Shown: positions 1 through 43,496, numbered from the stretch's first letter. The stretch: 60,426 nucleotides of DNA from Patescibacteria group bacterium (GCA_028696995.1 JAQVFY010000004.1:1-60426), one strand, 5' to 3'. A program made the numbers and translations. The notes: generated by a model from the sequence alone, not told the origin.

Positions 1-1244
1 GCTGTTTCACCATCTATCACCTCCCCTTTTTCAGAAATTAAATTTAAAACTCGCTCCCCTTTTTCTATAGTTTTACTAAACTTTTCCTCTTCTTCGCTAA
101 TTGATTTTAAAATAAAATCTTTATTTCTTTCCAACTCCTTATAATCCTCCTTATAGAAATCAATAATTATCTTAGAAGTTTCAGTGATAAAACCCCCTTG
201 AGTAATACCCAATTGACGAGCTGAACGTAAAGCCCGACGAATTAAACGACGAATAATATAGCCTTGATCGGTATTAGAAGGGCTAAGTTTCTTATCGTCA
301 CCCAATAAAAAAGTAGATGACTTAATATGATCAGAAATTATTTCAAAGTATTTCTTATTATTTTCATATTTCTTACCAGATAATTCTTCAATTTTTTTAA
401 TAACATTATTTAAAGAATCAATTTCAAAGATATTATCTAGATTATTAACAGCCATAACCAATCTTTCTAATCCGCCACCAAAATCAACATTTTTATTCTT
501 TAATTCCTCCCAGCCATTAGATGTTTTTTGATATTGCATAAAAACGGAATTGCCAATTTCGATAAAACGGCCGCATTCGCAATTTAAATGACAATGAGGC
601 CCAAATTTAGGATCATGCTTCTTCCCAGTATCATAAAAAGTTTCGCTATCTGGCCCACCCAACTCTCCAACAGCATCGCCCCTTTGCCACCAGTTTTTAT
701 CACGATAAGCAAAAATTTTTTGTTTGGTAAAATCTAGTTCTACTTCTGGCCCAGCATCACCCTCTAAGGTATTTTCCGGACCTTCTTGTGCCTCTATGCC
801 ATATTTTTTATAAATATTCTTCAGAATTTGAACAGATTTATTGTCTTTGGAAATCTTTTGACCATCACCAACATAAACAGTTTGATAAATTTTATTAATA
901 TCTAAATTCAATTTTTCAATAATAAACTCAAACCACCAATTAAGTTGTTCTTCTTTAAAATAATCCCCCAAACTCCAATTACCTAACATTTCAAAGAAGG
1001 TATTGTGTCGCCCATCTCCAACATCATCAATATCTTCACTACGAAAACATTTCTGGCTATTAGTTAATCTAACACCAGCCGGATGATTTTCACCTAATAA
1101 ATATGGAACCAATGGAGACATCCCGGAATTAACAAAAAGTAAGCTAGGGTCATTTTCAGGAATCAAAGAAGAGCTAGAAATTACTTGATGTTTCTTTTCA
1201 GCGAAAAATTCTAGGTATTTTTGACGTATTTTTTTAGTGGTCAT
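1..1244 (-). CDS. alaS: alanine--tRNA ligase, N-terminal part (the gene's 3' end runs off the window start)
   Basis: This ORF is not in the ORF track because no stop lies in the window. Reverse translation from the ATG at 1244-1242 gives MTTKKIRQKYLEFFAEKKHQVISSSSLIPENDPSLLFVNSGMSPLVPYLLGENHPAGVRLTNSQKCFRSEDIDDVGDGRHNTFFEMLGNWSLGDYFKEE. That is the conserved AlaRS catalytic N-terminus. Confidence 0.9.
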   Translation of the reverse strand, partial: MTTKKIRQKYLEFFAEKKHQVISSSSLIPENDPSLLFVNSGMSPLVPYLLGENHPAGVRLTNSQKCFRSEDIDDVGDGRHNTFFEMLGNWSLGDYFKEEQLNWWFEFIIEKLNLDINKIYQTVYVGDGQKISKDNKSVQILKNIYKKYGIEAQEGPENTLEGDAGPEVELDFTKQKIFAYRDKNWWQRGDAVGELGGPDSETFYDTGKKHDPKFGPHCHLNCECGRFIEIGNSVFMQYQKTSNGWEELKNKNVDFGGGLERLVMAVNNLDNIFEIDSLNNVIKKIEELSGKKYENNKKYFEIISDHIKSSTFLLGDDKKLSPSNTDQGYIIRRLIRRALRSARQLGITQGGFITETSKIIIDFYKEDYKELERNKDFILKSISEEEEKFSKTIEKGERVLNLISEKGEVIDGET

Positions 1245-1265
1245 TTGTTTATATAATTAAATTTT

Positions 1266-1982
1266 TTATTTAGAATAAACAGTAATATAATTTTTCAACA
1301 CAAAAATACAATCTTTTTTTAAATTACTTTTAATCCAAGCCTTTTCTTTTTCGCTGTCAACCAATTCACCCAACCCCTGTAAGATTTTATTATCTCCTAT
1401 TTTTTCTATAAAATCAACACAATCTCTTAAATAATCTACCACTTTTTTGTCCGTCCATTTTTTAATAATATCAACATCGATGTCCCAATTATTTTTAGCA
1501 AAATAATAAATATCATAAACATCTCTCATGGCTAGCTTTTTTCTAGAAGTAAGAGCAACAAGTTTACTGGCAAATAAATATTCTTTTTTAGCAGTCAAAA
1601 CACTAATACCCAAATAATCATTTAATTCGTAATAATTATTAATATTATCAACTATCTTTCTGGTATTTATTTCTATTTTAATATTGTGATCGTCTGGACC
1701 ATAGGAAAGTAAAGCAAAAATCGTAAATCTTTTAATATAATAATTTTTAACCTCTCCGTAGTTGGATAAAATTTCCACAATTTTTTTAAATATCAATTCT
1801 TTTTTCTCTTCATCAAAGACTAATAAATCAAAATCTAAGTCCACTGAAAATCTTGTTAAATTATAGAAAAAATAAACGCAGGTTCCGCCCTTAAAACCCA
1901 AAATAGAACTAATATTTACATCAGTATAAATATCTCTCAAAATCTGACCCATCAATAATTGATGTTTTTCTTTATTGAGCAT
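1266..1982 (-). CDS. AbiEii/AbiGii-family nucleotidyltransferase toxin (type IV TA, DUF1814-like)
   Basis: The 238-aa product has an N-terminus LGFKGGTCVYFFYNLTRFSVDLDFDL typical of the family. It overlaps the upstream AbiEi-like gene by 11 nt, which is classic TA coupling. Confidence 0.75.
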   Translation of the reverse strand: MLNKEKHQLLMGQILRDIYTDVNISSILGFKGGTCVYFFYNLTRFSVDLDFDLLVFDEEKKELIFKKIVEILSNYGEVKNYYIKRFTIFALLSYGPDDHNIKIEINTRKIVDNINNYYELNDYLGISVLTAKKEYLFASKLVALTSRKKLAMRDVYDIYYFAKNNWDIDVDIIKKWTDKKVVDYLRDCVDFIEKIGDNKILQGLGELVDSEKEKAWIKSNLKKDCIFVLKNYITVYSK

Positions 1983-2544
1983 AATCTTTCTTATAATTAA
2001 TTAACCTCCTTTCCAATTCTTTATTATTATAAACCTTTAATAAATCCTCGCACTTATCCCAATTGATACTACTAAGATTATCAAAATAATAATCTGGAAA
2101 TAAATAAATCATATCCAAAAAAGCTCTCTCAACCGTGGCGATGCTATAATTATTTTCATTGATAATACCACTGGGATTAAATAAAATTATATTTTTCAAT
2201 CTTCTAAAATTAAAAATATTCTTCCCTATTTTTATTTTTTTAGGCCATTTAGAGGCAATAAAAATACTATCGTAGTGCTGAAAAATTACCCCTTGTTCTC
2301 GCAAAACGGTTTCAAAGCTAATATAGGAAGGAACATAAATGCTAGTAGCTAATTCTTTTGGGCTATAATCTTTGTTTTTAGCAAAGACACCACGAGTCAA
2401 TCTTATCAATACTCCCTTCTTAACATAATAAGCTATTTTGTTGTATAAGCTCTCTTTATTGCTATTTTGCCAAATTAAAGCTAGATCTTTGGTGCTTAAA
2501 ATCGTTTTGGGAGATTTATATAATTTTGTTATTAAATTATCCAT
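1972..2544 (-). CDS. AbiEi-family antitoxin / transcriptional regulator
   Basis: The 190-aa product has an N-terminal segment ILSTKDLALIW...KIAYYVKKGVLIRLTRGVFA that matches the AbiEi_4-type winged-helix pattern. It lies directly upstream of, and overlaps, the AbiEii-like gene. Confidence 0.7.
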   Translation of the reverse strand: MDNLITKLYKSPKTILSTKDLALIWQNSNKESLYNKIAYYVKKGVLIRLTRGVFAKNKDYSPKELATSIYVPSYISFETVLREQGVIFQHYDSIFIASKWPKKIKIGKNIFNFRRLKNIILFNPSGIINENNYSIATVERAFLDMIYLFPDYYFDNLSSINWDKCEDLLKVYNNKELERRLINYKKDYAQ

Positions 2545-2556
2545 ATAATAATATCA

Positions 2557-2587
2557 AATGGAACTATTAATATTTCATAGTTCCATT
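2557..2587. promoter_or_regulatory. 11-bp perfect inverted repeat, candidate AbiEi operator; may also act as terminator of the upstream 1005-aa gene
   Basis: AATGGAACTAT (2557-2567) and ATAGTTCCATT (2577-2587) are separated by 9 nt. The repeat lies 13 nt upstream of the abiEi ATG. Confidence 0.5.
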
Positions 2588-2629
2588 ATACATTATTGGA
2601 ATAAAAAGGTCAAATTTAGATTATTACTC

Positions 2630-5600
2630 CTATTTTTGAGCTAACCAGACAACAAAATGCCGTTCAGATTTTAAATTTAATTTATTTACCTTAAAACCAA
2701 CCTCTTTTAGGAGGGTCTCCATTTCGTCTTCGGTTAAATCGTAGGCCATATTGGGCAAACCGGACTCATTATCAAACTTATCACGTAATAACATACCTGC
2801 ATACCTAACGTTATTTTCCGGACGTCTTTCAGTATAAAAAATTATATCTTTTTGTTCTTTAGTTTTATTAATTTTCAAGCTCGCAACTATTTTTTTGGAA
2901 GGAATTTCATCATCTTTATATTTATCTACATATAGATAGCCACCTTTTTTTAGAAGGTTATAGTATATTTGTAATGTTGCCTTAATTTTTTCTAAACTTT
3001 TCTTTTTGTCTATTTTAATCTCCTCATTCCAGCCACCATTTGCATATATAATTGTATTCCCACGATTAAATAAAAAATCAAATGAATTTTTCTTAAAATA
3101 TTTCTCCAAATCTAACCAAGGAGAAATTATAATCTCATGCTTAAGCCCTATCTTTTCTAAATCTTTTTTAAACGGCTTAGTCATAAAAACACTTTTATCC
3201 GCAATTTTAAAATTATACCCCTTTATGAGCATTTCTTTAACAAAAAAACCTGGGCCAACCGAAGTGTCTAAAAATCTTGATTTTTTATTTAAACCACAAT
3301 CTTTGAATAAATCTTCAATTTCGCCTACGTACTCATCAACATCATAAAGAAGATTATATTCACACATCTTCCATAATTCAGGAAAATCAGGTTCTTTCTC
3401 AACTTCAATTTCTTGAAGCAAGTCTTTATCACTAATATATTTAATTTCAGCCCCCGTTGCTAAATACCTGGCTGAATCTGGTCCCAGGGGAATATTAAAA
3501 AATTTAAAACTACCCAGATTTTTTTCTTGAAGCATTGTTTTGACATACAACTCAGCTCCTCTCGTAACCGCATCATCACACATAGCGGGGGTTAGCATGA
3601 TAAGAATCTTGTTTTTTGATTTAATCTTGGGTTTTAAAACCTTTTCTGAAACATAATTAAAGTCAATAATATCAGTCTTGCCAAATAATTCTGCTATAAA
3701 TTGACAAACCTCAACTATACAAAATTTTCCACCTGTTTTAGAGTTAAATGTGTTAAAAGTGCATGTTTTTATTTCTTGATTATCAAGAATCTTTATAGAC
3801 AAATCCCAAGTCTCTTTATTAAAAGAATAATTAATCATTCCATTAAAATACTCCTTATTTTTACTAATAAAGTTTTTAAATCTAGCCCGAAGAGCAGTTT
3901 CGCATATATATTTATTCCTATCAAAATTCAAAATATCGTCCTTAATTAATCCTCCTTTGTCTAATATTTCTTGATATATATCCGGTATTTTATTTTTAGA
4001 GTATCTATCCAATAACTCAACCCTATACTCTTCCGCGCTTTTATTATTATTTCTTTTTAATAGCCTTAACTCATTTATTCCTGTAGTATCATTTGCAATT
4101 GTTGTCAATTTGGCAGAAACTCCTTCGCTCTTAAGAAATGAACAAATTTCAACACCCAGTTTCCAGCTATAAATAGGAAAGGTTGTCATGCCCAGCTCAT
4201 CTAAATATTTATGTAAATTTTCAGGCATCAAATCTTTTATACTGGGATAAAAAGTGTTTCCATCTAAATCAGGTACGGCCATAAAATGACCGGCCATAAT
4301 AATAACTTCTGTATTTTTTTTATCATGAATACTATCTATAATTTTGCTTAAAATTTGTTTTTTTGAATTAACTAAAATATTTCTTTTATAATAAACAAAA
4401 TTCCTAAACCTCTCTAAATTCTCATTCTTGATAAGCCCTTTCTTTTTGTCAAGATAAAACTTCAATTCCTGAACAAACCTCTCTATATCATCCTCATCAT
4501 TATAACACCCTAGACTAACCCTAATTGTCTCTGAGCCCAATTCATCACTCAGTGGAAAGGCGCAATGAGATCCATATCGGATACAAATCTTTCTCTTATT
4601 AAAATGATCACCAATATCCTTAACGGACTCATCTTTAATAGAAAAAGAAACCAAACCTATTTTATCTTCTATCCTCTTTGGTCCATAAATACTTAGACCC
4701 TCTATTTCACTCAATTTATCAATAAGAGATTTTAATAATTCCAATTCATGTTTTCGTATTTCTAGATAAGACACTGAACGAATAAAATTAACTGCTTCTG
4801 ATAAAGCAATAATATTAGAAACATTAGGAGTGCCTCCCTCTAATCCGGCTAATCCCGGTAATAGATCTAGCACCAAATCATCCTTCTTTTTCCCTTTAAC
4901 AATAGAGGCATCACTTACTACTCCCCCACCAATACGAACCATTTTCATAAGTGGCCAAACATTTTTTGAGGCAAATAATACTCCAACTCCATCAGGGCCA
5001 TACATTTTATGAGAAGAAAAAGCACAGAAATCACATTTAGCCTTTTTAGTATCTACCGGAATATGGGAAATGGAATTAGCTGAATCAATTATATAGATAA
5101 TATCTTTATTAAACTTCTTTATTAGAGCTCCTATTTTTTCAATTGGATTAATCCCTCCTAGAACATTGGATGAATGTTGTAGAGACACTATTTTTGTCTT
5201 AGATGATAATTTTTCCTTTAAATCATTTACATCGATTAGCCCATCCTTTAAACCAACAACTCGAAAAATTGCTCCTCTTTCTATCATTTTCTTAAAAGGA
5301 AGCATATTAGAGTGATGCTCAGCAATAGAGATAATTATTTCATCGCCCTTTTTTATCTCGTCTAAAATGGTGTCCACAGCCAAATTAATTGAATCAGTGG
5401 TATTTCCGGTAAAAACAATTTCTTCTTTTTGACAATTTATGAAACGAGCAATATTCTCTCTAGCCAAATCAATTTTTTCTTCGTTTTTAGTGGCAATAGA
5501 GTGAGAACTTCTGTGTGGATTACCCTTATTCTCTAAACCAGAATGAGCAACATTAATAACTACAGCTGGAGTCTGCGTTGTAGCAGCGCTATCCAAATAC

Positions 5601-5647
5601 ACTAAAGAATTATTTCTAAAAAATGGAAACCTAGCTTTTAGATTCAT
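2630..5647 (-). CDS. three-part fusion protein: class-V aminotransferase/cysteine desulfurase (aa 1-~400) + unassigned middle module (~440-750) + class I SAM-dependent methyltransferase (~790-1005)
   Basis: The N-terminal part carries SSHKMYGP (PLP lysine at about aa 214) and GSHCAFP (active-site Cys at about aa 362). The C-terminal part carries FLDTSVGPG, a glycine-rich SAM motif I. I recognise no motif in the middle region. Confidence 0.75.
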   Translation of the reverse strand: MNLKARFPFFRNNSLVYLDSAATTQTPAVVINVAHSGLENKGNPHRSSHSIATKNEEKIDLARENIARFINCQKEEIVFTGNTTDSINLAVDTILDEIKKGDEIIISIAEHHSNMLPFKKMIERGAIFRVVGLKDGLIDVNDLKEKLSSKTKIVSLQHSSNVLGGINPIEKIGALIKKFNKDIIYIIDSANSISHIPVDTKKAKCDFCAFSSHKMYGPDGVGVLFASKNVWPLMKMVRIGGGVVSDASIVKGKKKDDLVLDLLPGLAGLEGGTPNVSNIIALSEAVNFIRSVSYLEIRKHELELLKSLIDKLSEIEGLSIYGPKRIEDKIGLVSFSIKDESVKDIGDHFNKRKICIRYGSHCAFPLSDELGSETIRVSLGCYNDEDDIERFVQELKFYLDKKKGLIKNENLERFRNFVYYKRNILVNSKKQILSKIIDSIHDKKNTEVIIMAGHFMAVPDLDGNTFYPSIKDLMPENLHKYLDELGMTTFPIYSWKLGVEICSFLKSEGVSAKLTTIANDTTGINELRLLKRNNNKSAEEYRVELLDRYSKNKIPDIYQEILDKGGLIKDDILNFDRNKYICETALRARFKNFISKNKEYFNGMINYSFNKETWDLSIKILDNQEIKTCTFNTFNSKTGGKFCIVEVCQFIAELFGKTDIIDFNYVSEKVLKPKIKSKNKILIMLTPAMCDDAVTRGAELYVKTMLQEKNLGSFKFFNIPLGPDSARYLATGAEIKYISDKDLLQEIEVEKEPDFPELWKMCEYNLLYDVDEYVGEIEDLFKDCGLNKKSRFLDTSVGPGFFVKEMLIKGYNFKIADKSVFMTKPFKKDLEKIGLKHEIIISPWLDLEKYFKKNSFDFLFNRGNTIIYANGGWNEEIKIDKKKSLEKIKATLQIYYNLLKKGGYLYVDKYKDDEIPSKKIVASLKINKTKEQKDIIFYTERRPENNVRYAGMLLRDKFDNESGLPNMAYDLTEDEMETLLKEVGFKVNKLNLKSERHFVVWLAQK

Positions 5648-5676
5648 ATTATTATAATTTTTTATTATATTTAATA

Positions 5677-6699
5677 TTATAGCACATTAACCTCCTCTTC
5701 CAAATCAATATCAAACCTGTTTTTCACCTCTTGTTTTATATTTTCTACCAAACCCAAAACATCCTTCTGCTTCGCTCCACCGTGATTTACGATTATCAAG
5801 GCCTGTTTTTCATAAATTCCCACCGGTCCAAAAGTCTTTCCTTTAAAACCACATTGCTCTATTAACCAACCAGCTGGAATTTTAAATCCCTGCTCATCCA
5901 CAAAACTTTTTATATCCGGAAACTTCTCTTTTAAGACCTTAAAATGTTCGGGATTAATTATGGGATTTTTAAAAAATGATCCAGCATTAGCTAAAACTGC
6001 CGGATTAGGCAATTTACTATCACGAATTTCTCTAATAATTTCCGTTAACTCCCTTAAACTTGGCTCCTTAATTCCTCTCTCCTCCAAGACTCGCTGAACA
6101 TCGGGATAATTTAAATTTAATTTCCCACTACGACTAAGTTTAAATTCCACCCAAAGAATAAAGTATTTTCCTTTTAATTCTTTTTTAAAAACACTATCAC
6201 GATAGGAAAAATTACAATCCTCTAAATTAAAAAATCTCCCCTCCCCTGTTTTTATATCAACTGCTTTTAGATTATAAAAAACGTCTTTGATTTCCGTACC
6301 ATAAGCTCCGATATTTTGTATCGGAGAGGCTCCAACCGTCCCAGGGATATAAAAAGTGTTTTCTAAACCATATAAACCATTTTCAATAGTAAAATAAACC
6401 AATTTTGACCAAATTTCTCCACTATAGACTCGAACAATTACCTCACTCTCATTTTCTGATACTATCTCTAAACCCTTAATTTCATTTTTTATCACCAATC
6501 CATCATAACCATCATCAGAAAACAGTAAATTAGAACCACCTCCCAGAACAAAAATTTTTTCATCTTTTTTATTGGCCCAATTAATGGTCGCAAATAATTC
6601 TTCTTCACTTTTAACTACTACAAAATATTTAGCTAAACCGCCAATTTTAAAAGTAGTATAATCAGATAATTTTATATTTTCTAAAATTTTTATATCCAT
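5677..6699 (-). CDS. murB: UDP-N-acetylenolpyruvoylglucosamine reductase
   Basis: The 340-aa product has the FAD-binding N-terminus LSDYTTFKIGGLAKYF...VLGGGSNLL. It sits in a mur cluster. Confidence 0.9.
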   Translation of the reverse strand: MDIKILENIKLSDYTTFKIGGLAKYFVVVKSEEELFATINWANKKDEKIFVLGGGSNLLFSDDGYDGLVIKNEIKGLEIVSENESEVIVRVYSGEIWSKLVYFTIENGLYGLENTFYIPGTVGASPIQNIGAYGTEIKDVFYNLKAVDIKTGEGRFFNLEDCNFSYRDSVFKKELKGKYFILWVEFKLSRSGKLNLNYPDVQRVLEERGIKEPSLRELTEIIREIRDSKLPNPAVLANAGSFFKNPIINPEHFKVLKEKFPDIKSFVDEQGFKIPAGWLIEQCGFKGKTFGPVGIYEKQALIIVNHGGAKQKDVLGLVENIKQEVKNRFDIDLEEEVNVL

Positions 6700-6703
6700 C
6701 TTT

Positions 6704-8128
6704 TTATTTTTTTAATAAACCCTCCCCCACTCGAAAAACATCACCAGCCCCTAGAAGTAAAATAATATTATTACTTCCTTTAATCTTTCTTAATTCTCTT
6801 TCAACTGCTTTCATGTCTTTAAAATATTTAAGATCCTGATCAATTTTGTTTTTCATATTATATTGCCCTATTTTAGCCATTAAATCAAGGCTAGAAAGCC
6901 CCCCGGCCTTTTCCCGGGCCGAAGTATAAATTTCCAATAAATAAACCCGATCTGACTGAGTAAAGCTTTCGGCAAAATCATTTATTAAGGCCTTGGTACG
7001 AGTAATGGTATGAGGATGAAAAACAGTAATAATCTTTTTATTTTTATACTTCTGCTTAACAGCCTGTAAACAAGCCTTAACCTCAACCGGATGATGAGCA
7101 TAATCATCAATAATAATATTACCCCGATATTTACCTAAAACTTCAAAACGACGAGCTGAGCCCAAAAATGAGTATAAGGCTTTTTTAAGATCCTCCAACT
7201 TGACTCCCAGTTTTAAAGACGTAGAAATAACGGCTAAGGCATTGGAAACATTATGTCGCCCAAATAACTTTATTTTAAATTCCCCCAAACTTCTATTATT
7301 CTCAAAAACTTCAAAAATCTGGTATCCAGATTTAAATTTCAGATTTCTAGCTAAATATACTTTAGAAGCAATATCCCTGAAATTATTTTTATTACCAAAA
7401 TCATCAATATAATATCCAATTATCTTAGCAGAAGAATTTTTAGAAGCCCTAACCGCTAAAGCATTTTCTAAATTTACAACCACAAAACCACTTGCTGGAA
7501 TTTTTTTTATAAACTCCGCAAAAACTTGAAAATAGGCTTTCTCATCTTTAAAATAATCAGGATGATCAAAATCAATATTATTTAAAACAATAGCTTGAGG
7601 ATTAAAATATTGAAATTTATTCTGATACTCATCGGATTCGGCAATAAAATATTTCGATTTACCAAACAAAGCACTTCCTTTAAATTGTCGAACATAAGAA
7701 CCGGTTAAAACATTAGGAGAAAGACCACTTTTTTGTAAAACATAACCCAACCAGGAAGTCACCGTAGTCTTACCATGACTACCGCAAACTGAAATACCAA
7801 AATAATCATCAAATAAATAACCCAAAGCTTGAGCATAAGAAATTGTGGGAATATTTTTATTACTAAAATATTTTAACTCGATATTCTCCTTATCATTATA
7901 GGCGGAAGAATAAATTATTAAATCAATTTTTTTAGGAAAATCTTTTAAAGAAAAACCATTTTTAAATTTAATTTGAGAATTAATTAAAGTTTTATCAGTT
8001 GGAAAAACATCTTTAATATCAGAACCACTAATAGTAAATCCTTTACTCTTTAAAAATTGGGCTAACATCGCCATCCCCACCCCCTTTATTCCAACCATAT
8101 AAATATTTTGGTAATCTTTTAATTTCAT
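6704..8128 (-). CDS. murC: UDP-N-acetylmuramate--L-alanine ligase
   Basis: The 474-aa product has the N-terminus MVGIKGVGMAMLAQFL and the Mur ligase P-loop GSHGKTT. It lies between murG and murB. Confidence 0.9.
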   Translation of the reverse strand: MKLKDYQNIYMVGIKGVGMAMLAQFLKSKGFTISGSDIKDVFPTDKTLINSQIKFKNGFSLKDFPKKIDLIIYSSAYNDKENIELKYFSNKNIPTISYAQALGYLFDDYFGISVCGSHGKTTVTSWLGYVLQKSGLSPNVLTGSYVRQFKGSALFGKSKYFIAESDEYQNKFQYFNPQAIVLNNIDFDHPDYFKDEKAYFQVFAEFIKKIPASGFVVVNLENALAVRASKNSSAKIIGYYIDDFGNKNNFRDIASKVYLARNLKFKSGYQIFEVFENNRSLGEFKIKLFGRHNVSNALAVISTSLKLGVKLEDLKKALYSFLGSARRFEVLGKYRGNIIIDDYAHHPVEVKACLQAVKQKYKNKKIITVFHPHTITRTKALINDFAESFTQSDRVYLLEIYTSAREKAGGLSSLDLMAKIGQYNMKNKIDQDLKYFKDMKAVERELRKIKGSNNIILLLGAGDVFRVGEGLLKK

Positions 8129-8134
8129 AAAATC

Positions 8135-9211
8135 TTAATTTAAAATTTCTTTAATTATATTCATCATCTCCTTATTACCGTTTTTAATAACCAAAGAAAT
8201 ATTTTCACTTAATCTCTTTTTTAGATCTGGATTATTTAAAATGTTTTTCACTTCATTAATAAAAATATCAGGTCGTAAAGTATTTTCTTCTAAAATTTTA
8301 GCTGATTTTAACTTGGCAAACTCTTTAGCATTTTCTTCTTGATGAGAATTGGGCATCGGAATTAAAATGGCTGGTTTTTTAAAGAAAGATAATTCTGTTA
8401 AAGCTCCTAGACCACAACGAGATACTACTAAATCGGACTCCAACATCAGGTTTAATAAATCTTGGTGATAAATAAAATCAATTTTTTGATAATTATTATT
8501 TATTATTTTTTTATCATCACTTCTATCTATTTTTCCACTAACATGAAAAACTCTAGTAAAAATAAGGAGGTCTTCGATAGATTGGGAAATTAATTGATTA
8601 ATAAAAGATGATCCCGTTCCACCACCAACCACTAACATTAAAGGCAAATGAGATTTTTTAATATTATATTTTTTTAAAATATCGTCCCGATCAGCTGAAA
8701 AATTTTTTAAATCTGGACCCAAATTACCAATCCATCTAGCCTTATTCCCATAATCACACAAAGAACTCTCAAAAGTAACTGTTACAACTTTAGCAAATCT
8801 AGCCATAATCCTATTAGCCAAACCAGGAACAACATCCTGCTGATGAACTATAATTGGAATACGCCAAAACCAGGAAGCAATAGAAAGAGGAACGGCCACA
8901 AATCCGCCAGCACTAATTATCAAATCAGGCTTTTCTTTTTTTAATAAAATTAAGGACTGCCAGAAAGCAATAAATATTTTAAAAATATCAATAAAATTTA
9001 ATAAAGAAAAATAGCGACGAAGCTTGCCACTTGAAATAGCCCGATACTCAATAGCCTCTTTTTTAACCAAATCTCTTTCAATACCTCGATAAGTTCCAAT
9101 AAATAAAAAATTAAACTCATATTTAAACTCTTTGTAAATCTGTAATAGCGGAGTAACCGAGCCACCAGTTCCTCCTCCACTCAAAATAATTTTTTTATTC
9201 AAATTATTCAT
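8135..9211 (-). CDS. murG: undecaprenyldiphospho-muramoylpentapeptide beta-N-acetylglucosaminyltransferase
   Basis: The 358-aa product has the SGGGTGGSVTPLL N-terminal glycine loop. Its position between ftsW and murC fits murG. Confidence 0.85.
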   Translation of the reverse strand: MNNLNKKIILSGGGTGGSVTPLLQIYKEFKYEFNFLFIGTYRGIERDLVKKEAIEYRAISSGKLRRYFSLLNFIDIFKIFIAFWQSLILLKKEKPDLIISAGGFVAVPLSIASWFWRIPIIVHQQDVVPGLANRIMARFAKVVTVTFESSLCDYGNKARWIGNLGPDLKNFSADRDDILKKYNIKKSHLPLMLVVGGGTGSSFINQLISQSIEDLLIFTRVFHVSGKIDRSDDKKIINNNYQKIDFIYHQDLLNLMLESDLVVSRCGLGALTELSFFKKPAILIPMPNSHQEENAKEFAKLKSAKILEENTLRPDIFINEVKNILNNPDLKKRLSENISLVIKNGNKEMMNIIKEILN

Positions 9212-9217
9212 AAAAAA

Positions 9218-10447
9218 TTAATTAATTCTTTTCACCTTTTTATTATTATAATAAACTCCTTGACGAGAAATATTCAAAAGAACCCCACAAGAAGCTAAGA
9301 GAATCAACAGAGAGCTCCCCCCAGCACTAACAAAAGGTAAGGGTACTCCAGTCATTGGAACAAGATTTATCATCCCCGCAATATTCAAAAAAGCCTGAAA
9401 AAATATCCAAACCGATATTCCCACTGCCAAAGAACGACCATACATATCTGGTGCTCTTCTAGCTATCGTCATTCCTTTGATAAATATAAACAAATAAATC
9501 AAAATAAGTAAAATAGCCCCCACAAAACCAAGTTCTTCGGCAATTACCGGAAAAATAGAATCAGCCCAAACTTCTGGCAAATAATTAAATTTCTGTCGAC
9601 TATTACCTAGTCCGAGACCAAAAAGGCCCCCAGAACCAACAGCAATAAGAGATTGATTAACCTGATAACAAGCATCTCTGTCAAAATCTGGATCTTGTAA
9701 ACATCTAACCCTATTTAATTGATACTCTTTAACTATACCCGAAGACTCTTGTTTTTCAGCTTGAGCAAAGACGTAAATAACACCTGTTAACAAAATCAAA
9801 GATAATATTACAATTTGTTTCATATTACCTTCCGCTACAAAATATATTGATAGAGCAATTATAAAAACCAATATAAAGGTTCCTAAGTCTGGTTGCTTAA
9901 GAAGTAAAAAGGCAATAAGAAACATAACAAGCAAAAAAGGCAAAAAACCAGTTACAAACACTTTTAAATCATCCTTTCGACTCTCTACCCAAGCCGATAA
10001 ATAAAAAATCAAAAATAATTTCATAAATTCCGCTGGCTGAAGAGATTGCCCAAAAATTACAATCCAACTACGAGAAGTTCCGTGTTTAGCACTAAGACCA
10101 GGAATAAAAACTAAAATCAAAGAAATAAAAGCTAAAATTAAAAAAATAAAAGAATATTTTCTAAAAAAATGATAATCTATTTTTGATAATAAAAATAAAA
10201 AAATTAAACCTAAGAAAAGAGGAATTAATTGACCCTTAATATAATGATAAGCATTACCGGTATTAGAGTGAGCCGTAACCAAGGAAGCGCTAAATAGAAG
10301 CACTAAACCAAAAACGACAAGAAATAAAATAGCACCTAACAAATATTTATCTAAGGGATTTTTAATAATAGTCATTTTCTCGTCTTTATTCTTAAAATTA
10401 TTATTAAGACGATTACTATTATTTTTTGATTGCTCTCTTTTAAACAT
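9218..10447 (-). CDS. ftsW: SEDS-family peptidoglycan glycosyltransferase FtsW/RodA
   Basis: The 409-aa product is polytopic and carries the conserved C-terminal NLVPMTGVPLPFVSAGGSS. It lies between mraY and murG. M25 is an alternative start. Confidence 0.8.
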   Translation of the reverse strand: MFKREQSKNNSNRLNNNFKNKDEKMTIIKNPLDKYLLGAILFLVVFGLVLLFSASLVTAHSNTGNAYHYIKGQLIPLFLGLIFLFLLSKIDYHFFRKYSFIFLILAFISLILVFIPGLSAKHGTSRSWIVIFGQSLQPAEFMKLFLIFYLSAWVESRKDDLKVFVTGFLPFLLVMFLIAFLLLKQPDLGTFILVFIIALSIYFVAEGNMKQIVILSLILLTGVIYVFAQAEKQESSGIVKEYQLNRVRCLQDPDFDRDACYQVNQSLIAVGSGGLFGLGLGNSRQKFNYLPEVWADSIFPVIAEELGFVGAILLILIYLFIFIKGMTIARRAPDMYGRSLAVGISVWIFFQAFLNIAGMINLVPMTGVPLPFVSAGGSSLLILLASCGVLLNISRQGVYYNNKKVKRIN

Positions 10448-14556: not shown

Positions 14557-14588
14557 AAATAAAAAACCGGCTCTTAGTTGAACCGGTT
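14557..14588 (-). terminator. rho-independent terminator closing the GC-rich two-gene cassette
   Basis: The minus strand reads AACCGG-N12-CCGGTT followed by TTTTTATTTA. A second small hairpin, GTCGC-N7-GCGAC, lies at 14591-14607 immediately after the stop codon. Confidence 0.7.
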
Positions 14589-14607: not shown

Positions 14608-15465
14608 TTATAAGTGAACGAACAGGTAGGCGTTGATAGCCTTGCTCTCATGCTTGTAGCCAAGAGCAATAAGTCCACTACCGAATTTTTGGAATTTGAA
14701 TCCTTTAATGAAGCCGAACTCCATCCTTGGAAATTCGGCAGACACGGATTCATATCCGGCGTCGAGGTAGATACTCATGTCATTTCCAATGTCAACATTG
14801 GAAAAATTGGCGATTACGTTAGATTCACCAATTCTCTCGAAAGAGATGACATTATATAATCTCCCAACGGAGAAAACGGTGGCCGCGCCAATCCTTTCAT
14901 TAAAGACAGAGTAGTATGAAACGAATTCCGCTTTTTTAAAATATAATTTGGCGTGATACTCGGCCTTATCTCCCCTTTCGGCAACACCAAGGCCCAAACA
15001 GATGCCATTTTTGAGGCGGTAGGTAGCCTTAGCACCCAGGGCTCCTCCGGGAATCCTGGAATGAGTCCAGGTCTCAAAATGACCGTCACCAGTCGGAGGT
15101 AATGGTCTCAATTCCGTGGATAAAGTAGCCATACGACCGATTTCCAAACCCATTCTTTCTTTATAGGAATGGAACTTGATCGAAACTGAATTCATCGGTA
15201 ATCCGTTGCCATCCGAATAATCGAACGTCGCAAAGGATTTCACCCTCATGAACGGCAATGCTTGCCAGGCGAGAATGCTTCCGACGCGGAAGCTATAGAA
15301 AAACTCCTGAGCGGATTCATCCACCGAAAATGCGGTGGTGTTCAATACGCCGGCATAAACGCTGGCAGTGATGCTACTGTCCTTAGAGGTCAAGCCTGAA
15401 ATCTGAGCCTGAGAAATCTGAACAAACAACAAAGAAACAAAAACAATAATAAAAAACTTTTTCAT
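14608..15465 (-). CDS. secreted beta-strand-rich protein, outer-membrane-barrel-like, in a GC-rich island
   Basis: The 285-aa product has the signal peptide MKKFFIIVFVSLLFVQISQAQ. It shows many alternating hydrophobic/polar stretches and G/Y/F-rich segments. G+C is far above the flanks. Confidence 0.6.
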   Translation of the reverse strand: MKKFFIIVFVSLLFVQISQAQISGLTSKDSSITASVYAGVLNTTAFSVDESAQEFFYSFRVGSILAWQALPFMRVKSFATFDYSDGNGLPMNSVSIKFHSYKERMGLEIGRMATLSTELRPLPPTGDGHFETWTHSRIPGGALGAKATYRLKNGICLGLGVAERGDKAEYHAKLYFKKAEFVSYYSVFNERIGAATVFSVGRLYNVISFERIGESNVIANFSNVDIGNDMSIYLDAGYESVSAEFPRMEFGFIKGFKFQKFGSGLIALGYKHESKAINAYLFVHL

Positions 15466-15486: not shown

Positions 15487-16113
15487 TTAATTTATTTTCC
15501 AATTAACTCCCAACCTCAGAAGCTGGGTTTTGTTTGTGATGTCATAAGCGATATCGGTGTAAGCCGAAAAATCGCTGCTGACTTTTTGGGTGTACCTCAG
15601 GCACGAAACGTGCTTAGGCGCATCCTTTTGAAAACTGATCACCGTATGCGACACTCGGAATCTCCAGATATCATAATTTACAACATTTACCAAAAAAAGA
15701 AATGAAGGCTCGACGTCCCAACTACCTTCAGGTTGACCGAATGAACAGCCAGCCCAATGAAGAGTTGAAAAACCCTTAAAAGGACTTGTTGTCATAATTG
15801 CCCCAGCGTAAGGGACATTTTTGAAATAACCGGCGCTAGGTCCGAGATGAATCTTCTTCTTTCCTCCGATGGAGAAAAAATGATTAATCAGGATCTTGTC
15901 CTGGGCGAAGGTTATCTGCGACGCCCCATACTTCTGCGAACTGGAATTAAAAATAATATAAATTCCGGATCCCAGAGCACTGCGCCCCGAAGAGAAATCA
16001 ATATTTTTCAATTGAAACCCGGAGGCTGTCTGAGCCACCGAAGAATCAACCTGAGCTTGAGCAAAAAAAATTGCTCCAAAAATAAAAAAACAAATAGCAA
16101 TAGCTTTTTTCAT
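15487..16113 (-). CDS. secreted small beta-barrel-like protein (about the size of an 8-10-stranded OMP) in a GC-rich island
   Basis: The 208-aa product has the signal peptide MKKAIAICFFIFGAIFFAQAQ and the C-terminal strand LLRLGVNWKIN. The lines at 15541-15660 count 28/60 and 30/60 G+C. Confidence 0.6.
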   Translation of the reverse strand: MKKAIAICFFIFGAIFFAQAQVDSSVAQTASGFQLKNIDFSSGRSALGSGIYIIFNSSSQKYGASQITFAQDKILINHFFSIGGKKKIHLGPSAGYFKNVPYAGAIMTTSPFKGFSTLHWAGCSFGQPEGSWDVEPSFLFLVNVVNYDIWRFRVSHTVISFQKDAPKHVSCLRYTQKVSSDFSAYTDIAYDITNKTQLLRLGVNWKIN

Positions 16114-16139
16114 GATGGTGATGGTTTATTAGGTTAGTT

Positions 16140-16208
16140 ATTAAATTGTCTATAAACCCCACCTAAAAACATCTAATGATGTCAGATGAATTTAATAGAC
16201 AATTTAAT
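16140..16208 (-). promoter_or_regulatory. long 5'-leader hairpin with a 14-bp perfect inverted repeat
   Basis: ATTAAATTGTCTAT (16140-16153) pairs with ATAGACAATTTAAT (16195-16208). An inner hairpin CATCT-N9-AGATG lies at 16170-16188. The element sits between the promoter and the ATG at 16113. Confidence 0.5.
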
Positions 16209-16246
16209 TTTTTAAACCTTTTTGTCAAAGAACCAAATAACCACAT

Positions 16247-16275
16247 ATTATATCACATTTAAAATAAAATGTCAA
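16247..16275 (-). promoter_or_regulatory. consensus sigma70 promoter TTGACA-17-TGaTATAAT (extended -10)
   Basis: On the minus strand, TTGACA is at 16275-16270, the spacer is exactly 17 nt, TG is at 16255-16254 and TATAAT is at 16252-16247. Confidence 0.75.
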
Positions 16276-16369
16276 TGATTTGCATAAAAAAACACTAAAA
16301 TATACTTGAAAATCAAAAAAACACCCAAAATTGATGTTTTATAAATAAAAATATTAATACTTAAAAAGA

Positions 16370-18337
16370 CTAGGGTTTAAAATAAAAAACCATGATTCTA
16401 CCATCAGCTACACTATAAACCATATTAGCTTCGACTCTAGCTTCTTCTATTATTCTATCAAAAGCCCACCAATAATCATTAACTACAAAATAAACACCCT
16501 CAGCTCCAATTTCCGACATTAAATCTAACATCAACTCCCTATCAGGCGCTTCAATCATCTTCAAATAATAATCATACAACAACCCTCCAGTTTGAACCGA
16601 ATAATAAAGCCAGGGTCCGTAATATCTTTTAAAGCCATACTCCTTGATGGCACTAGCTCCGACCTGTTGATTAGCCAAAACAATATAATTATCATTCTCC
16701 TTAACACTATCAATAAAACCAACCGCCATGAAATCAGCTGATGAAACCGAATAAGAACGAGAATTAAAATAATTATCTTTGCGAGGATAATTTAGATATA
16801 GTGAAGTTAAAAGGAGAAGTGATAAAAATATTATAACAATAATTTTAAAAGGTTTTTTTTCTTGACTTATTTTTTTCATCAAACAAATAAACATCTCATA
16901 AAAAATCGGAATTAAAAACAAAAATGATAAAATAAAAATCCTATTAGCATAACTATTTTTATCAATTTGGCTTAGAAACGGAAAATCAATAAAGATACTA
17001 ATAAAATATGACAACATTAAAGCAGTGGAATTAAAATAAAAAATCTTTAAATCTCGACGCTTGAATTTAAAAACAAAAACCGTAGCAAGGATAAATAATA
17101 TTAACAAGCAAATATTTTTATTTAAGCCAAATAAATAGATAAAATTAAGGAAAATATTTTCCTGACCCAATAATCGTGGAATCCAATTAGAAAAATCCAT
17201 ACTAAAAGATGCAAAACGCCCCCCCGATAATATTAAAAGTGTTGGTAAAATAATAATTTGGCCTAAATAGGCTATGATTTTTAAATAATAAGAACTGGAT
17301 TCCCGCTTTCGCGGGAATGACAAGGGGTGCGAGAATGACAAGGGGTTATGAAATGAAGTGAATAGTATAAAGGTAAAAATAATGGCTGGGACTCCCGCTA
17401 AAGGATGAATAAAAAATATTGCTAAAGACAAAGAAAATAAAAAGAAAAAATTAAAACGATTTTTTACAAAGTACTTATTAAAAGAAAACAGCAATAAAAT
17501 AATTAAGAATAAAAAAGATAAATTTTGTGGAACAGTATAAGTAAAAATAGAGAAAGGTAAAACCAGAAAAATAACTAATGGCCAAATTGTCTTATCAAAT
17601 CCCCTTCTCTTAAAATTATGAATAAAAGTTACTGGAATTAAAATCACTGATAAAATAGGTACCAACATTTTATCTAAAATCTCTGGAGAAAATGGCCAAA
17701 TTTTTAAAACAAATAACTCTAAAGTATATTGTCCAATATAATAAATAGTTTTGGGTTCAATTAAACCAAATTTTAAAATATCGGAGATAGCTCTTTGATG
17801 AAGTAATTGATCATAACCAAAAGCTATCTTGTAAACAAAAAATGAAATCGAAAAAAATAAGAAATAAAATAAAAGAAGAAATAAATAAGACCACCTGTTT
17901 TTAAAATAAAAATTTACAAACAATGTTAATAATAAAAACCATAAAAATATCCAAAAATATGTGGGTAAAAAATGCCAAGGAGAGGCAATGGCTGAAAAAC
18001 TACCAAATTTAAATAATATTTGAAATAGAATAAAAAATAAGCTTAAAGTTATTAAGGGTAAAATAATTTTTAAGATAATTCCACCACCCCTAACCTCATC
18101 GCCAGACTGTCGCCCTTGAGAAATCGGCAAAGCTTGTTGATTAGACCTATAAATGCTAAAATAAACAAAGATATAAGTTAAAAACAAAGCCAAAAAAAAG
18201 ATAATTACTAGCACTAAATCATTAAACTTGTAAAAATAATAAAAAACCGAACCAATATTTATAATCAGCGATAAAAATAACAGAAAAATAGTCAAAAAAT
18301 TTGTCTTTAAATATTTCGAAAAATTGTTTAAACTCAT
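16370..18337 (-). CDS. large polytopic membrane protein with a C-terminal soluble domain, possibly a GT-C-type glycosyltransferase or polymerase
   Basis: The 655-aa product has more than 12 hydrophobic helices followed by a soluble tail of about 150 aa. It is adjacent to glycosyltransferase genes. The functional call is by context only. Confidence 0.5.
   Translation of the reverse strand: MSLNNFSKYLKTNFLTIFLLFLSLIINIGSVFYYFYKFNDLVLVIIFFLALFLTYIFVYFSIYRSNQQALPISQGRQSGDEVRGGGIILKIILPLITLSLFFILFQILFKFGSFSAIASPWHFLPTYFWIFLWFLLLTLFVNFYFKNRWSYLFLLLFYFLFFSISFFVYKIAFGYDQLLHQRAISDILKFGLIEPKTIYYIGQYTLELFVLKIWPFSPEILDKMLVPILSVILIPVTFIHNFKRRGFDKTIWPLVIFLVLPFSIFTYTVPQNLSFLFLIILLLFSFNKYFVKNRFNFFFLFSLSLAIFFIHPLAGVPAIIFTFILFTSFHNPLSFSHPLSFPRKRESSSYYLKIIAYLGQIIILPTLLILSGGRFASFSMDFSNWIPRLLGQENIFLNFIYLFGLNKNICLLILFILATVFVFKFKRRDLKIFYFNSTALMLSYFISIFIDFPFLSQIDKNSYANRIFILSFLFLIPIFYEMFICLMKKISQEKKPFKIIVIIFLSLLLLTSLYLNYPRKDNYFNSRSYSVSSADFMAVGFIDSVKENDNYIVLANQQVGASAIKEYGFKRYYGPWLYYSVQTGGLLYDYYLKMIEAPDRELMLDLMSEIGAEGVYFVVNDYWWAFDRIIEEARVEANMVYSVADGRIMVFYFKP
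17297..17345. repeat. GC-rich palindromic element inserted in frame in the CDS
   Basis: An 8-bp hairpin ATTCCCGC-TTTC-GCGGGAAT lies at 17299-17318. It is followed by two copies of GAATGACAAGGGG (17315-17327 and 17333-17345, period 18). The element is translated as HNPLSFSHPLSFPRKRESS. Confidence 0.7.
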
Positions 18338-41991: not shown

Positions 41992-42002
41992 TACTAAGTT
42001 TT

Positions 42003-42041
42003 AAATAAAAAAGAGCGGGTTTCTTGTGAAACGACGCTCTT
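42003..42041 (-). terminator. rho-independent terminator of the GC-rich lipoprotein gene
   Basis: The minus strand reads AAGAGCG..GTTTC-ACAA-GAAAC..CGCTCTT followed by TTTTATTT. Confidence 0.7.
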
Positions 42042-42064: not shown

Positions 42065-42574
42065 TTAGAAAACTATATAGAAGCCCGTTTTAAAAACGGA
42101 AACCGATCCGGGCATATAGTCATCCTTGACGATGGCCAGACTACTACGCCCTGCTATCACATTGTGATAGAGTTTGTAGTCGCCGTTGAGATCGGTCAAC
42201 GGGAAGCTCTCTTCCCCGACCCTGGGGATGCTATCTCCGTCATAGAAAGAGATTCTCAGGATGTCGTTTCCGACAAGCTGATGATTAAATTTCCAGGACT
42301 TGTCGGTGTCGCCCGACTGTATTAGTTTACCCTCGCTAAAAACGATGGCGTAATCGTTTTCCCATCCCTCTATCTGGTGATAAAAGGAGTCATGAGACGA
42401 GGAGACGACCAGATGATCATTCTTCTCGATTCTCAGTATCTTGTTATACTGATTCATGACAGAGACAAAATTACCTCTCACCCAATACTGCTCCTCCTTT
42501 TGACAGGAAGAAAAAACGGTGATAATAACAGCAATCAGGGCAACAATAAGAGAAAAGCTTTTCATTTTTTTCAT
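42065..42574 (-). CDS. putative lipoprotein of unknown function in a GC-rich island
   Basis: The 169-aa product has a signal peptide ending VFSSC, a lipobox-like Cys followed by QKEEQ. It is beta-rich and ends in F. The line at 42121-42180 counts 28/60 G+C. Confidence 0.6.
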   Translation of the reverse strand: MKKMKSFSLIVALIAVIITVFSSCQKEEQYWVRGNFVSVMNQYNKILRIEKNDHLVVSSSHDSFYHQIEGWENDYAIVFSEGKLIQSGDTDKSWKFNHQLVGNDILRISFYDGDSIPRVGEESFPLTDLNGDYKLYHNVIAGRSSLAIVKDDYMPGSVSVFKTGFYIVF

Positions 42575-42590
42575 AATCTTTTTTTGTTTT

Positions 42591-42644
42591 TTGGTTAGTA
42601 TTTACAAATATTCTACTAGTAAAACACTTGTAAATACCAACCAA
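42591..42644 (-). promoter_or_regulatory. long 5'-leader hairpin with a 17-bp inverted repeat (16/17 matched)
   Basis: TTGGTTAGTATTTACAA (42591-42607) pairs with TTGTAAATACCAACCAA (42628-42644). The loop is 20 nt. The element lies between the promoter and the ATG at 42574. Confidence 0.55.
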
Positions 42645-42676
42645 AATACTTTCAAAGAACTATCATGACAATACTT

Positions 42677-42705
42677 ATTATATCATAAATAACATAAAAT
42701 GTCAA
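42677..42705 (-). promoter_or_regulatory. consensus sigma70 promoter TTGACA-17-TGaTATAAT (extended -10)
   Basis: On the minus strand, TTGACA is at 42705-42700, the spacer is 17 nt and TGATATAAT is at 42685-42677. Both boxes and their flanks are identical to the promoter at 16247-16275. Confidence 0.75.
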
Positions 42706-42768
42706 TGACTTTGAATAAAGGTCAATAAAATATGGGCTTTTATCAATAAACACTTAAACAAAAAACTA

Positions 42769-42797
42769 TTGACATAATATTTTAAAAATAGTAATAT
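42769..42797 (+). promoter_or_regulatory. sigma70 promoter TTGACA-17-TAATAT, divergent from the previous promoter
   Basis: TTGACA is at 42769-42774, the spacer is 17 nt and TAATAT is at 42792-42797. Confidence 0.65.
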
Positions 42798-42848
42798 GAA
42801 CTGTTAATAAATAGTTCTTCAAAATATAAACAAAACCAAAAAGAAAAA

Positions 42849-43475: not shown

Positions 43476-43496
43476 TCCGAAAAAATTAAAAAAAAC

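Follow-up and report, generated by a model that had tools for sequence, protein, structure and literature searches.

Candidate boxA elements and long RNA hairpins in the leaders of secreted-protein genes of a Patescibacteria group bacterium

In a 60,426-nt stretch of DNA from a Patescibacteria group bacterium (GCA_028696995.1, JAQVFY010000004.1:1-60426; this whole stretch, as analysed, is called the window here) two minus-strand genes for secreted proteins, one of 208 and one of 169 amino acids (aa), have leaders of the same kind, namely, a strong sigma-70 promoter-like site, the 9-mer GTTCTTTGA, and a long inverted repeat that ends shortly before the start codon. The original prediction described this module and took it for a common regulatory cassette or signal, such as an operator, an attenuator, or an RNA stem that stabilises the mRNA or gates its translation. 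The two loci raise the question what the 9-mer is and why it stands between a promoter and a hairpin. The original prediction missed that the 9-mer is best read as the core of an 11-nt boxA, the NusB/NusE (S10) site of rRNA antitermination, which would place the module in the Nus-factor antitermination system. We consider it probable that each locus is a high-output transcription unit that is built like the leader of an rRNA operon and gives Nus-dependent, Rho-resistant high expression.

The shared 9-mer and its likeness to boxA

The 9-mer GTTCTTTGA is found at 16225-16233(-) and 42652-42660(-), as had been predicted, but its distance from the -10 hexamer is 13 nt at the 208-aa gene and 16 nt at the 169-aa gene and not 14 to 17 nt. 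One more copy in the window, at 52881, is unrelated and lies in coding sequence. In both leaders the box is on the coding strand and begins at about +7 to +10 if transcription starts where predicted. The boxA consensus of gamma-proteobacteria is GYTCTTTAANA (Baniulyte et al. 2017, PMC5725501). Each box of the window departs from it at one position (Table 1), and the orthologue boxes GTTCTTTAACA and GTTCTTTAAAA (L123, L136, L137) match it at 11 of 11.

The likeness to rRNA boxA comes from metagenomes, which were scanned with the pattern TTGACAW-N13-TGNTAYRMT-N8-18-GTTCTTTRA. At least 120 loci were obtained, and among the matches listed four are rRNA operons (L156, L195, L196, and L242) in which the box precedes 16S by 41-77 nt; the boxes in the rRNA leaders and spacers of these contigs are identical to the box of the 169-aa gene, GTTCTTTGAAA. 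In both of the operons for which spacer sequence is present the box occurs again after the spacer tRNAs, just before 23S, at position 2040 of L156 (22 nt before 23S) and at position 104 of L242, and this pre-23S position was not selected by the scan pattern. Judged by its position, a box in the 16S leader and again in the spacer before 23S is the canonical arrangement of boxA. The 11th base of the box, which was left free in the search, is A in 85 of the 113 distinct hits versus a background of 32% (p = 1e-20). As a control, generic promoters were inspected, and the box was present within 60 nt in 1 of 120.

In the window itself the only intergenic perfect matches to the box are the two behind the perfect promoters, and the full pattern of promoter, 8-20 nt, and GYTCTTTRANA occurs twice versus not once in 1000 Markov-simulated windows. 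This result and the further copies of the layout, found in at least 30 metagenome leaders, speak against the chance resemblance that the original prediction had allowed for. The box is retained ahead of homologues of about 50% identity that lie in other genomic contexts (L136, L137), and a variant of it is retained in L138, where a homologue of 39% identity is preceded by no hairpin. Literature searches by sequence (GTTCTTTGA, GUUCUUUGA) returned unrelated primers and small interfering RNAs only, and no report was found that links boxA with Patescibacteria. Neither a boxB nor a boxC was recognised, and no short conserved stem-loop follows boxA at either locus. In the leader of the 169-aa family a mini open reading frame (ORF), ATG ATA GTT CTT TGA (MIVL*), overlaps boxA and is kept in five orthologues, as is the whole leader.

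Promoters and hairpins of the two leaders

The promoter pattern TCATTGACATTTTAT-N8-TGATATAAT has two matches in the window, both on the minus strand (16247-16278(-) and 42677-42708(-)). No further match was found in the window even with up to 3 mismatches, and there was none in 100 shuffles, which bears out the shared promoters at 16247-16275 and 42677-42705 with their 17-nt spacers. Both have TTGACA, a 17-nt spacer, the TG of an extended -10, and TATAAT, and in two 10-kb promoter scans they were the only 12/12 sigma-70 promoter-like sites with an extended -10. Upstream of the -35 hexamer the sequence TTTTTAT[T/G]CAAA[T] is common to both loci and to the orthologues L123 and L127, and this A/T-rich tract resembles an UP element and may act as one. 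Transcription is predicted to start near 16241-16239 for the 208-aa gene and near 42671-42669 for the 169-aa gene.

The orthologous loci, which were retrieved by protein identity, are syntenic and retain TTGACAT and TG.TAT.AT; the extra bases that are shared within the window (TCA, TTTTAT, and the A of TGA) vary across them. The promoter of the 169-aa gene is 83-97% identical in orthologues versus 56-60% for the next 100 nt upstream. The generic part of the promoter, TTGACATTTTAT-N8-TGATATAAT, was found at more than 120 unrelated sites in Clostridia, Ruminococcus, and Saccharibacteria genomes ahead of all kinds of genes, and therefore it is simply a strong promoter. By this comparison the near-identity of the two promoters is mostly consensus and points to a common design and not to a copied cassette. 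In one Logan contig, L261 (1-235), the leader of the 169-aa family is kept from TGTCATGATAG on and the sequence upstream is unrelated. The two parts meet exactly where transcription is predicted to start, and either the promoter was replaced or the contig is an assembly chimera.

The inverted repeats of the original prediction, one of 14 bp without a mismatch (16140-16208) and one of 16/17 bp (42591-42644), are real but the hairpins are larger, with 32 and 26-27 pairs, respectively (Table 1). Stems begin 2-5 nt after boxA, and their 3' ends are 17 nt before the ATG of the 208-aa gene and 14 nt before that of the 169-aa gene (17-27 nt in the original prediction). It was correct that the hairpin sequences differ and their placement is alike, since the stems are unrelated and both stand between box and ATG; stem sequences and loops differ likewise among the metagenome examples. 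Folding gave a minimum free energy (MFE) of -33 kcal/mol (z = -4.3) for the leader of the 208-aa gene and of -38.4 kcal/mol (z = -9.1) for the whole leader of the 169-aa gene, in support of the predicted structures.

Comparison of homologous leaders also supports them. In the alignment of the 208-aa family 94% of the cells are paired, 5 of the 32 pairs have compensatory changes, and there are several A-U/G-U switches; the covariation score is 0.213 versus 0.147 in shuffles and was reached in 0 of 500 of these, and slid controls collapse. The stem of the 169-aa family hardly varies; it has several conserved G·U pairs, and A-U/G-U switches are present in orthologues. Conservation in this family falls from 85-89% in the leader to 74-76% in the coding sequence and 56-60% upstream of the promoter, a pattern that argues for selection on the leader. 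The sense strand folds better than the antisense strand at both genes, with -30.6 versus -21.0 kcal/mol at the 208-aa gene and -29.8 versus -15.8 kcal/mol at the 169-aa gene. Because of the G·U pairs, the compensatory changes, and the better folding of the sense strand, the hairpins are sense-strand RNA structures and not DNA operators. For an RNase III substrate about 20 bp or more of nearly continuous pairing is the relevant length, and there are 26-27 consecutive pairs at the 169-aa gene, while at the 208-aa gene the main stem has 15 bp and is extended by further pairs. A role as 5'-terminal stem-loops that stabilise the mRNA was considered and set aside because the stems begin about 20-30 nt from the predicted start, a judgement that could change if the leader is processed.

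Two short sequences of the leaders were observed in addition. In the 169-aa family 5' UCAUGA (leader 42652-42668 (-)) and the sequence around the start codon, U(C/U)AUGA (42572-42577 (-)), are complementary, and this complementarity is kept in five orthologues, as is the whole leader. The sequence UAAACC(A/U)AA recurs 15-25 nt upstream of AUG in the window leaders and in L136, L137, L141, L168, L176, L189, L210, and L255; it is often the 3' side of a GGUU/AACC closing helix and is also present in leaders without a hairpin.

The same layout was looked for in 32 metagenome leaders without a Shine-Dalgarno sequence. When these were folded long stems were found in all 32, most of them on low-GC contigs, and in about 30 a stem of 20-51 pairs fills the space between box and start codon, with 0-9 nt left over behind the box and about 0-17 nt ahead of ATG. 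About half of these leaders head genes for proteins with a signal peptide or a lipobox. There are also short boxA leaders without a hairpin (L138, L182, L189, L210, and L255), and boxA is found ahead of structured leaders with a Shine-Dalgarno sequence, of a c-di-GMP-I riboswitch (L253 1605-1703), of tRNAs (L216), and of phage-like genes. Among the latter is a conserved gene for a 121-aa phage-like protein in marine contigs (L153, L185, L188, and L215). A unit that recurs in L142, L143, L166, L170, L197, L198, L204, and L256 consists of a promoter, boxA, a highly structured leader of about 120 nt (-50 to -60 kcal/mol), a Shine-Dalgarno sequence, and the gene for a protein of about 290 aa; this protein has the N-terminus ...GQIKQINRFGSDAIEKVL... 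and 60% GC on contigs of 40-50% GC, and in L143 a LOOT RNA lies 1.2 kb from the unit.

The genes behind the leaders and their base composition

Table 1. Predicted leader elements, genes, and terminators of the boxA-led units in the window
Feature	Position	Strand	Details
A/T-rich upstream element, 208-aa gene	16276..16293	-	GTTTTTTTATGCAAATCA; UP-element-like; adjoins the -35
Sigma-70 promoter, 208-aa gene	16247..16275	-	-35 TTGACA 16275-16270; 17-nt spacer; TG 16255-16254; -10 TATAAT 16252-16247; 12/12 + TG
boxA-like element, 208-aa gene	16223..16233	-	GTTCTTTGACA; 10/11 versus GYTCTTTAANA; orthologues GTTCTTTAACA or GTTCTTTGACA
Long 5' untranslated region (5'-UTR) RNA hairpin, 208-aa gene	16130..16220	-	outer helix AGGUU/AACCU, 15-bp main stem, apical stem; 32 pairs including a 14-bp perfect run
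Gene for 208-aa secreted 12-strand beta-barrel protein	15487..16113	-	start codon 16113-16111; GC 0.42, GC at third codon positions (GC3) 0.42
Gene for 285-aa signal-peptide protein	14608..15465	-	second gene of the unit; GC 0.44, GC3 0.50
Intrinsic terminator-like hairpin	14565..14588	-	AACCGGTTCAACTAAGAGCCGGTT then TTTTATTT (T-run); ends the two-gene unit
A/T-rich upstream element, 169-aa gene	42706..42723	-	GACCTTTATTCAAAGTCA; UP-element-like; aligns with the 16276-16293 element and orthologues
Sigma-70 promoter, 169-aa gene	42677..42705	-	-35 TTGACA 42705-42700; 17-nt spacer; TG 42685-42684; -10 TATAAT 42682-42677; 12/12 + TG
boxA-like element, 169-aa gene	42650..42660	-	GTTCTTTGAAA; 10/11 versus GYTCTTTAANA; invariant in five orthologous leaders
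Long 5'-UTR RNA hairpin, 169-aa gene	42589..42646	-	26-27 consecutive pairs, several conserved G·U
Gene for 169-aa lipoprotein-like protein	42065..42574	-	start codon 42574-42572; signal peptide ending FSSC; GC 0.435, GC3 0.55
Intrinsic terminator	42002..42040	-	AGAGCG...CGCTCT then TTTTTTATTT; ends the monocistronic unit
Divergent third unit	42769..42824	+	promoter TTGACA-17-TAATAT 42769-42797; one-mismatch boxA GTTCTTCAAAA 42814-42824; no hairpin
Third GC-rich secreted-protein gene, 208 aa	42849-43475	+	downstream of the one-mismatch boxA; GC 0.41

The 285-aa gene begins 21 nt past the stop codon of the minus-strand 208-aa gene with no promoter between them, and the linker between the hairpin and this 208-aa gene (16129-16114) is A-rich and has no Shine-Dalgarno sequence. 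The latter was dropped as a mark of special genes because a Shine-Dalgarno-like sequence is present in 1 of the 49 genes of the window; A/T-rich sequence stands ahead of the start codons. The window comes from a landfill metagenome, and the isoleucyl-tRNA synthetase encoded on it shares 76-78% identity with that of metagenome-assembled genomes which bear the name Patescibacteria or Candidatus Falkowbacteria. Relatives with 70-84% protein identity show synteny at both loci. Homologues are few. All seven homologues of the 169-aa protein are on Patescibacteria-like contigs, syntenic between ruvA and mreB, and homologues of the 208-aa protein were found on Patescibacteria-like contigs only. Logan contigs of related strains retain both loci, in a comparison that is too noisy for the mapping of insertions and deletions.

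No match to Pfam or NCBIfam was found for the four downstream proteins. The AlphaFold model of the minus-strand 208-aa protein (mean predicted local distance difference test, pLDDT, 85.6) has a signal peptide and a 12-strand beta-barrel, and its best PDB matches are the outer-membrane porins KdgM and NanC, with template modelling (TM) scores of 0.52-0.65. The model of the 169-aa protein, with a pLDDT of 58, is too poor for interpretation. Patescibacteria are thought to lack an outer membrane, and a porin-like barrel is unexpected in such a genome; going by the model, the barrel could act on the membrane of a host.

That the downstream genes are GC-rich and encode secreted proteins was stated correctly in the original prediction: they have signal peptides and a GC content of 0.42-0.44 versus 0.31 (31%) for the window. 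The four boxA-led genes of the window have a GC3 of 0.41-0.55 and a C content at third codon positions (C3) of 0.20-0.32, and the housekeeping genes have 0.17-0.28 and 0.04-0.12, respectively. In ordinary genes of the window the sense strand has far more G than C, with C at only 10-12%, and the C content of the boxA-led mRNAs is about twice as high. At 54 metagenome loci the boxA-led ORF also exceeds its neighbour ORFs, which are a crude control, by medians of +0.029 in GC and +0.023 in C (p = 4e-4 each), and the GC excess is above 0.10 at 16 of the metagenome loci. Distant homologues of the 208-aa protein (L134, L136-L138) are not GC-rich, and therefore the bias is not imposed by the amino-acid composition. 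It would be accounted for by a foreign origin or by the codon selection that acts on highly expressed genes. A recent transfer from Bacteroidetes, at which the AQAQ and SSC signal peptides and the GC content hinted, was also considered; homologue searches gave Patescibacteria-like contigs only, and a Bacteroidetes origin is not shown. Rho prefers C-rich RNA, and both foreign origin and codon selection would fit a need of these genes for protection from Rho.

Two observations concern the distribution of parts of the window. Fragments at 14663-14861 (in the 285-aa gene) and at 42760-43495 (the (+)-strand 208-aa gene) are present at 91-97% nucleotide identity in unrelated samples, namely, bovine, freshwater metatranscriptome, soda lake, food, and wastewater samples, in which the flanking genome was not detected. 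This suggests that these two genes move or are unusually conserved. At 17274-17490, inside a gene for a 655-aa membrane protein, the contig depth rises to about 1,200 to 10,000 versus about 20-40 elsewhere in all four landfill runs, and this spike is probably low-complexity sequence common to many organisms.

Proposed mechanism and alternatives

If the box is a boxA, then each locus would have, in this order, an UP-like A/T tract, a near-consensus sigma-70 promoter, boxA GUUCUUUGA(C/A)A about 7-10 nt into the predicted transcript, and, after 2-5 nt, a long hairpin that takes up most of the 5' UTR, followed by an A-rich stretch of 14-17 nt and AUG. In the nascent RNA the box would be bound by NusB-NusE (S10), and this pair, with NusA and NusG, would convert RNA polymerase into the termination-resistant, fast form that is known on rRNA. 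The modified polymerase would shield the unusually C-rich mRNAs from premature termination of the Rho type, and very high expression of the secreted or surface proteins would follow. The hairpin would set boxA beside the start codon, and it is long enough that it may serve as an RNase III substrate or as a stabiliser. The start sites, the binding of Nus factors, the direction of the effect (activation versus repression), the involvement of Rho, and the exact job of the hairpin are what we infer here from sequence.

Several points weigh against this proposal. A search for RNA sequencing runs that contain either locus found none, and the start sites, and hence the transcription of the box, are predicted only. 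Both window boxes have G at position 8, where the gamma-proteobacterial consensus, which is that of another phylum, has A. The link to rRNA boxA rests on operons of other uncultivated bacteria and not on this genome or its close relatives. In the window, whose genes were annotated in part and by synteny, there is no rRNA operon, and none of nusB, nusE, rho, and rnc was recognised. With lengths of 0.7 and 1.7 kb both units are short, and each stops at an intrinsic terminator; therefore read-through of a long operon is not the purpose. The composition of the metagenome loci was compared with crude controls, as said above. By itself the 11-mer shows no enrichment in the window as a whole (3 found versus 1.7 expected); the significance of the box lies in its position and not in its frequency. 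Finally, the boxA in the E. coli suhB leader represses, and the effect of boxA could be of either sign here.

This last point leads to the reverse proposal, which we consider unlikely but a serious rival, that boxA has a negative effect here: a tethered Nus complex would loop the leader and block the ribosome at the start codon, cleavage of the stem by RNase III would relieve the block, and expression would be tied to the status of Nus factors or of ribosome assembly. There is a precedent in suhB, where boxA-dependent translational repression is followed by Rho termination, and a parallel has been drawn with lambda nutL and the highly structured, RNase III-sensitive leader of the N gene (Baniulyte et al., PMC5725501). 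In space the hairpins leave no more than about 20 nt between boxA and AUG, and the 5' UCAUGA of the 169-aa family can pair with the start-codon context, both of which would suit repression. On the other hand, a perfect promoter, an UP-like tract, and codon and GC features of a special highly expressed or foreign class of genes fit high output better, the target genes are not Nus or translation genes, and the logic of occluding a Shine-Dalgarno sequence is not directly transferable to a genome in which such sequences are so rare. It is quite unlikely that the 9-mer is no Nus site at all but a preference near the start site or a coincidence in conserved structured 5' UTRs that stabilise the mRNA or gate its translation. 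Such UTRs would account for stems that are strong, conserved, and on the sense strand, the lack of enrichment of the 11-mer across the window agrees with them, and, the whole leader being conserved in each family, conservation of the box alone is not diagnostic. They would not account for the identical 9-mer in rRNA leaders and before 23S, for the enrichment of A at the 11th position in 113 independent hits, or for the survival of the box where there is no hairpin (L138 and the third gene of the window); moreover, the stems lie about 20-30 nt past the predicted 5' end and are not 5'-terminal protective stem-loops.

The two remaining alternatives are very improbable. One is a duplicated or mobile cassette of promoter and leader, with identity by descent. 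In its favour the promoter regions agree at 24 specified bases, the similarity reaches about 45 nt upstream of the -35, pieces of the GC-rich genes are present at 91-97% identity in unrelated metagenomes, and L261 has a break at the predicted start site. What decides for a common design and against a recent duplication is that the shared non-consensus bases are lost in orthologues of either gene, that the -10-to-box spacing differs (13 versus 16 nt), and that the hairpins are unrelated in sequence; in addition, the synteny of the loci in relatives makes each leader old at its own locus. Of the original prediction, a shared cis-signal ahead of these accessory genes stands. It is just as hard to credit that a regulon factor uses the inverted repeats or the box as DNA operators, or that the stems are attenuators of the terminator type or riboswitches, as might be thought from the length of the inverted repeats and from the place of these elements, which separate promoter and gene at each locus. 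An operator, as named in the original prediction, is unlikely since the two loci have different hairpin sequences, the box is no palindrome, the G·U pairs and compensatory changes keep RNA pairing and not a DNA palindrome, and the antisense strand folds worse by 10-14 kcal/mol. The stems are not attenuators either because A-rich sequence and not a U-tract follows both of them. In Rfam no family was found for either leader: the gathering threshold let only tRNAs through, and what the E-value threshold admitted was generic hairpin noise. The third function named in the original prediction, an RNA stem that stabilises the mRNA or gates its translation, may apply.

Relation to known leaders and significance

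The proposed Nus-dependent leaders resemble and differ from four known systems. As in rRNA leaders and spacers, an 11-nt motif that fits GYTCTTTAANA stands on the sense strand shortly past a strong promoter with UP, -35, and -10 elements, and metagenomic operons carry the identical 9-mer ahead of 16S and again in the spacer before 23S; unlike these, the units here are short and encode secreted proteins, and a local long hairpin takes the place of the long-range stem for 16S processing. In phage lambda the nutL-N leader has the same order of promoter, boxA, structured RNA, and start codon, with a long double-stranded stem between the Nus site and the start, whereas here no short conserved boxB or N-like protein is evident, stems and loops differ by gene, and the context is cellular and syntenic and not that of a phage. 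The stabilising 5'-UTR stem-loops of the ompA/aprE type are at the very 5' end and have no boxA. Like the present leaders they combine a strong promoter with a 5' UTR that is long and structured, and the product is exported and probably abundant, but here boxA comes first and the stems begin about 20-30 nt past the predicted 5' end. In gamma-proteobacteria boxA is known in the mRNA leaders of suhB, rpsJ, and ParE-like toxin genes, and regulation of genes other than rRNA genes was proposed to be widespread (PMC5725501). There, too, boxA is within about 100 nt upstream of the protein start. The present genome differs in being that of a member of the Patescibacteria and almost without Shine-Dalgarno sequences, the targets are genes for secreted proteins or lipoproteins and not translation genes, a long stem stands between boxA and AUG, and the known examples are repressive. 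The phylum, the class of targets (secreted, lipoprotein, and porin-like), and the recurrence of boxA, long hairpin, and AUG in this order in a genome that does without Shine-Dalgarno sequences appear to be new.

Control by boxA and Nus factors was long held to be specific to rRNA and lambdoid phages, and a few enterobacterial mRNAs were added only in 2017. The rRNA-type boxA on secreted-protein genes and in at least 30 further leaders suggests a much broader use of Nus-dependent control of elongation, with a recognisable architecture, in uncultured lineages. The signature of a promoter, about 8-18 nt, and GYTCTTTRANA could be used to find surface and host-interaction proteins that are probably abundant, the leaders are candidate expression signals for future genetics in these organisms, and the proposal ties the base composition of C-rich genes in C-poor genomes to Rho and antitermination in a way that can be tested. 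As a tentative extension, which we hold to be possible though doubtful, boxA with a hairpin ending at the start codon may be a widespread, dedicated class of leader in ultra-small Patescibacteria whose own mRNAs are very poor in C and have no Shine-Dalgarno sequences; it would shield C-rich, possibly horizontally acquired host-interaction genes, such as those for porin-like beta-barrels and lipoproteins, from silencing by Rho, and may hand the Nus-modified polymerase to the initiating ribosome. If this is true, then boxA leaders would mark the set of surface and host-interaction genes of these uncultivated episymbionts.

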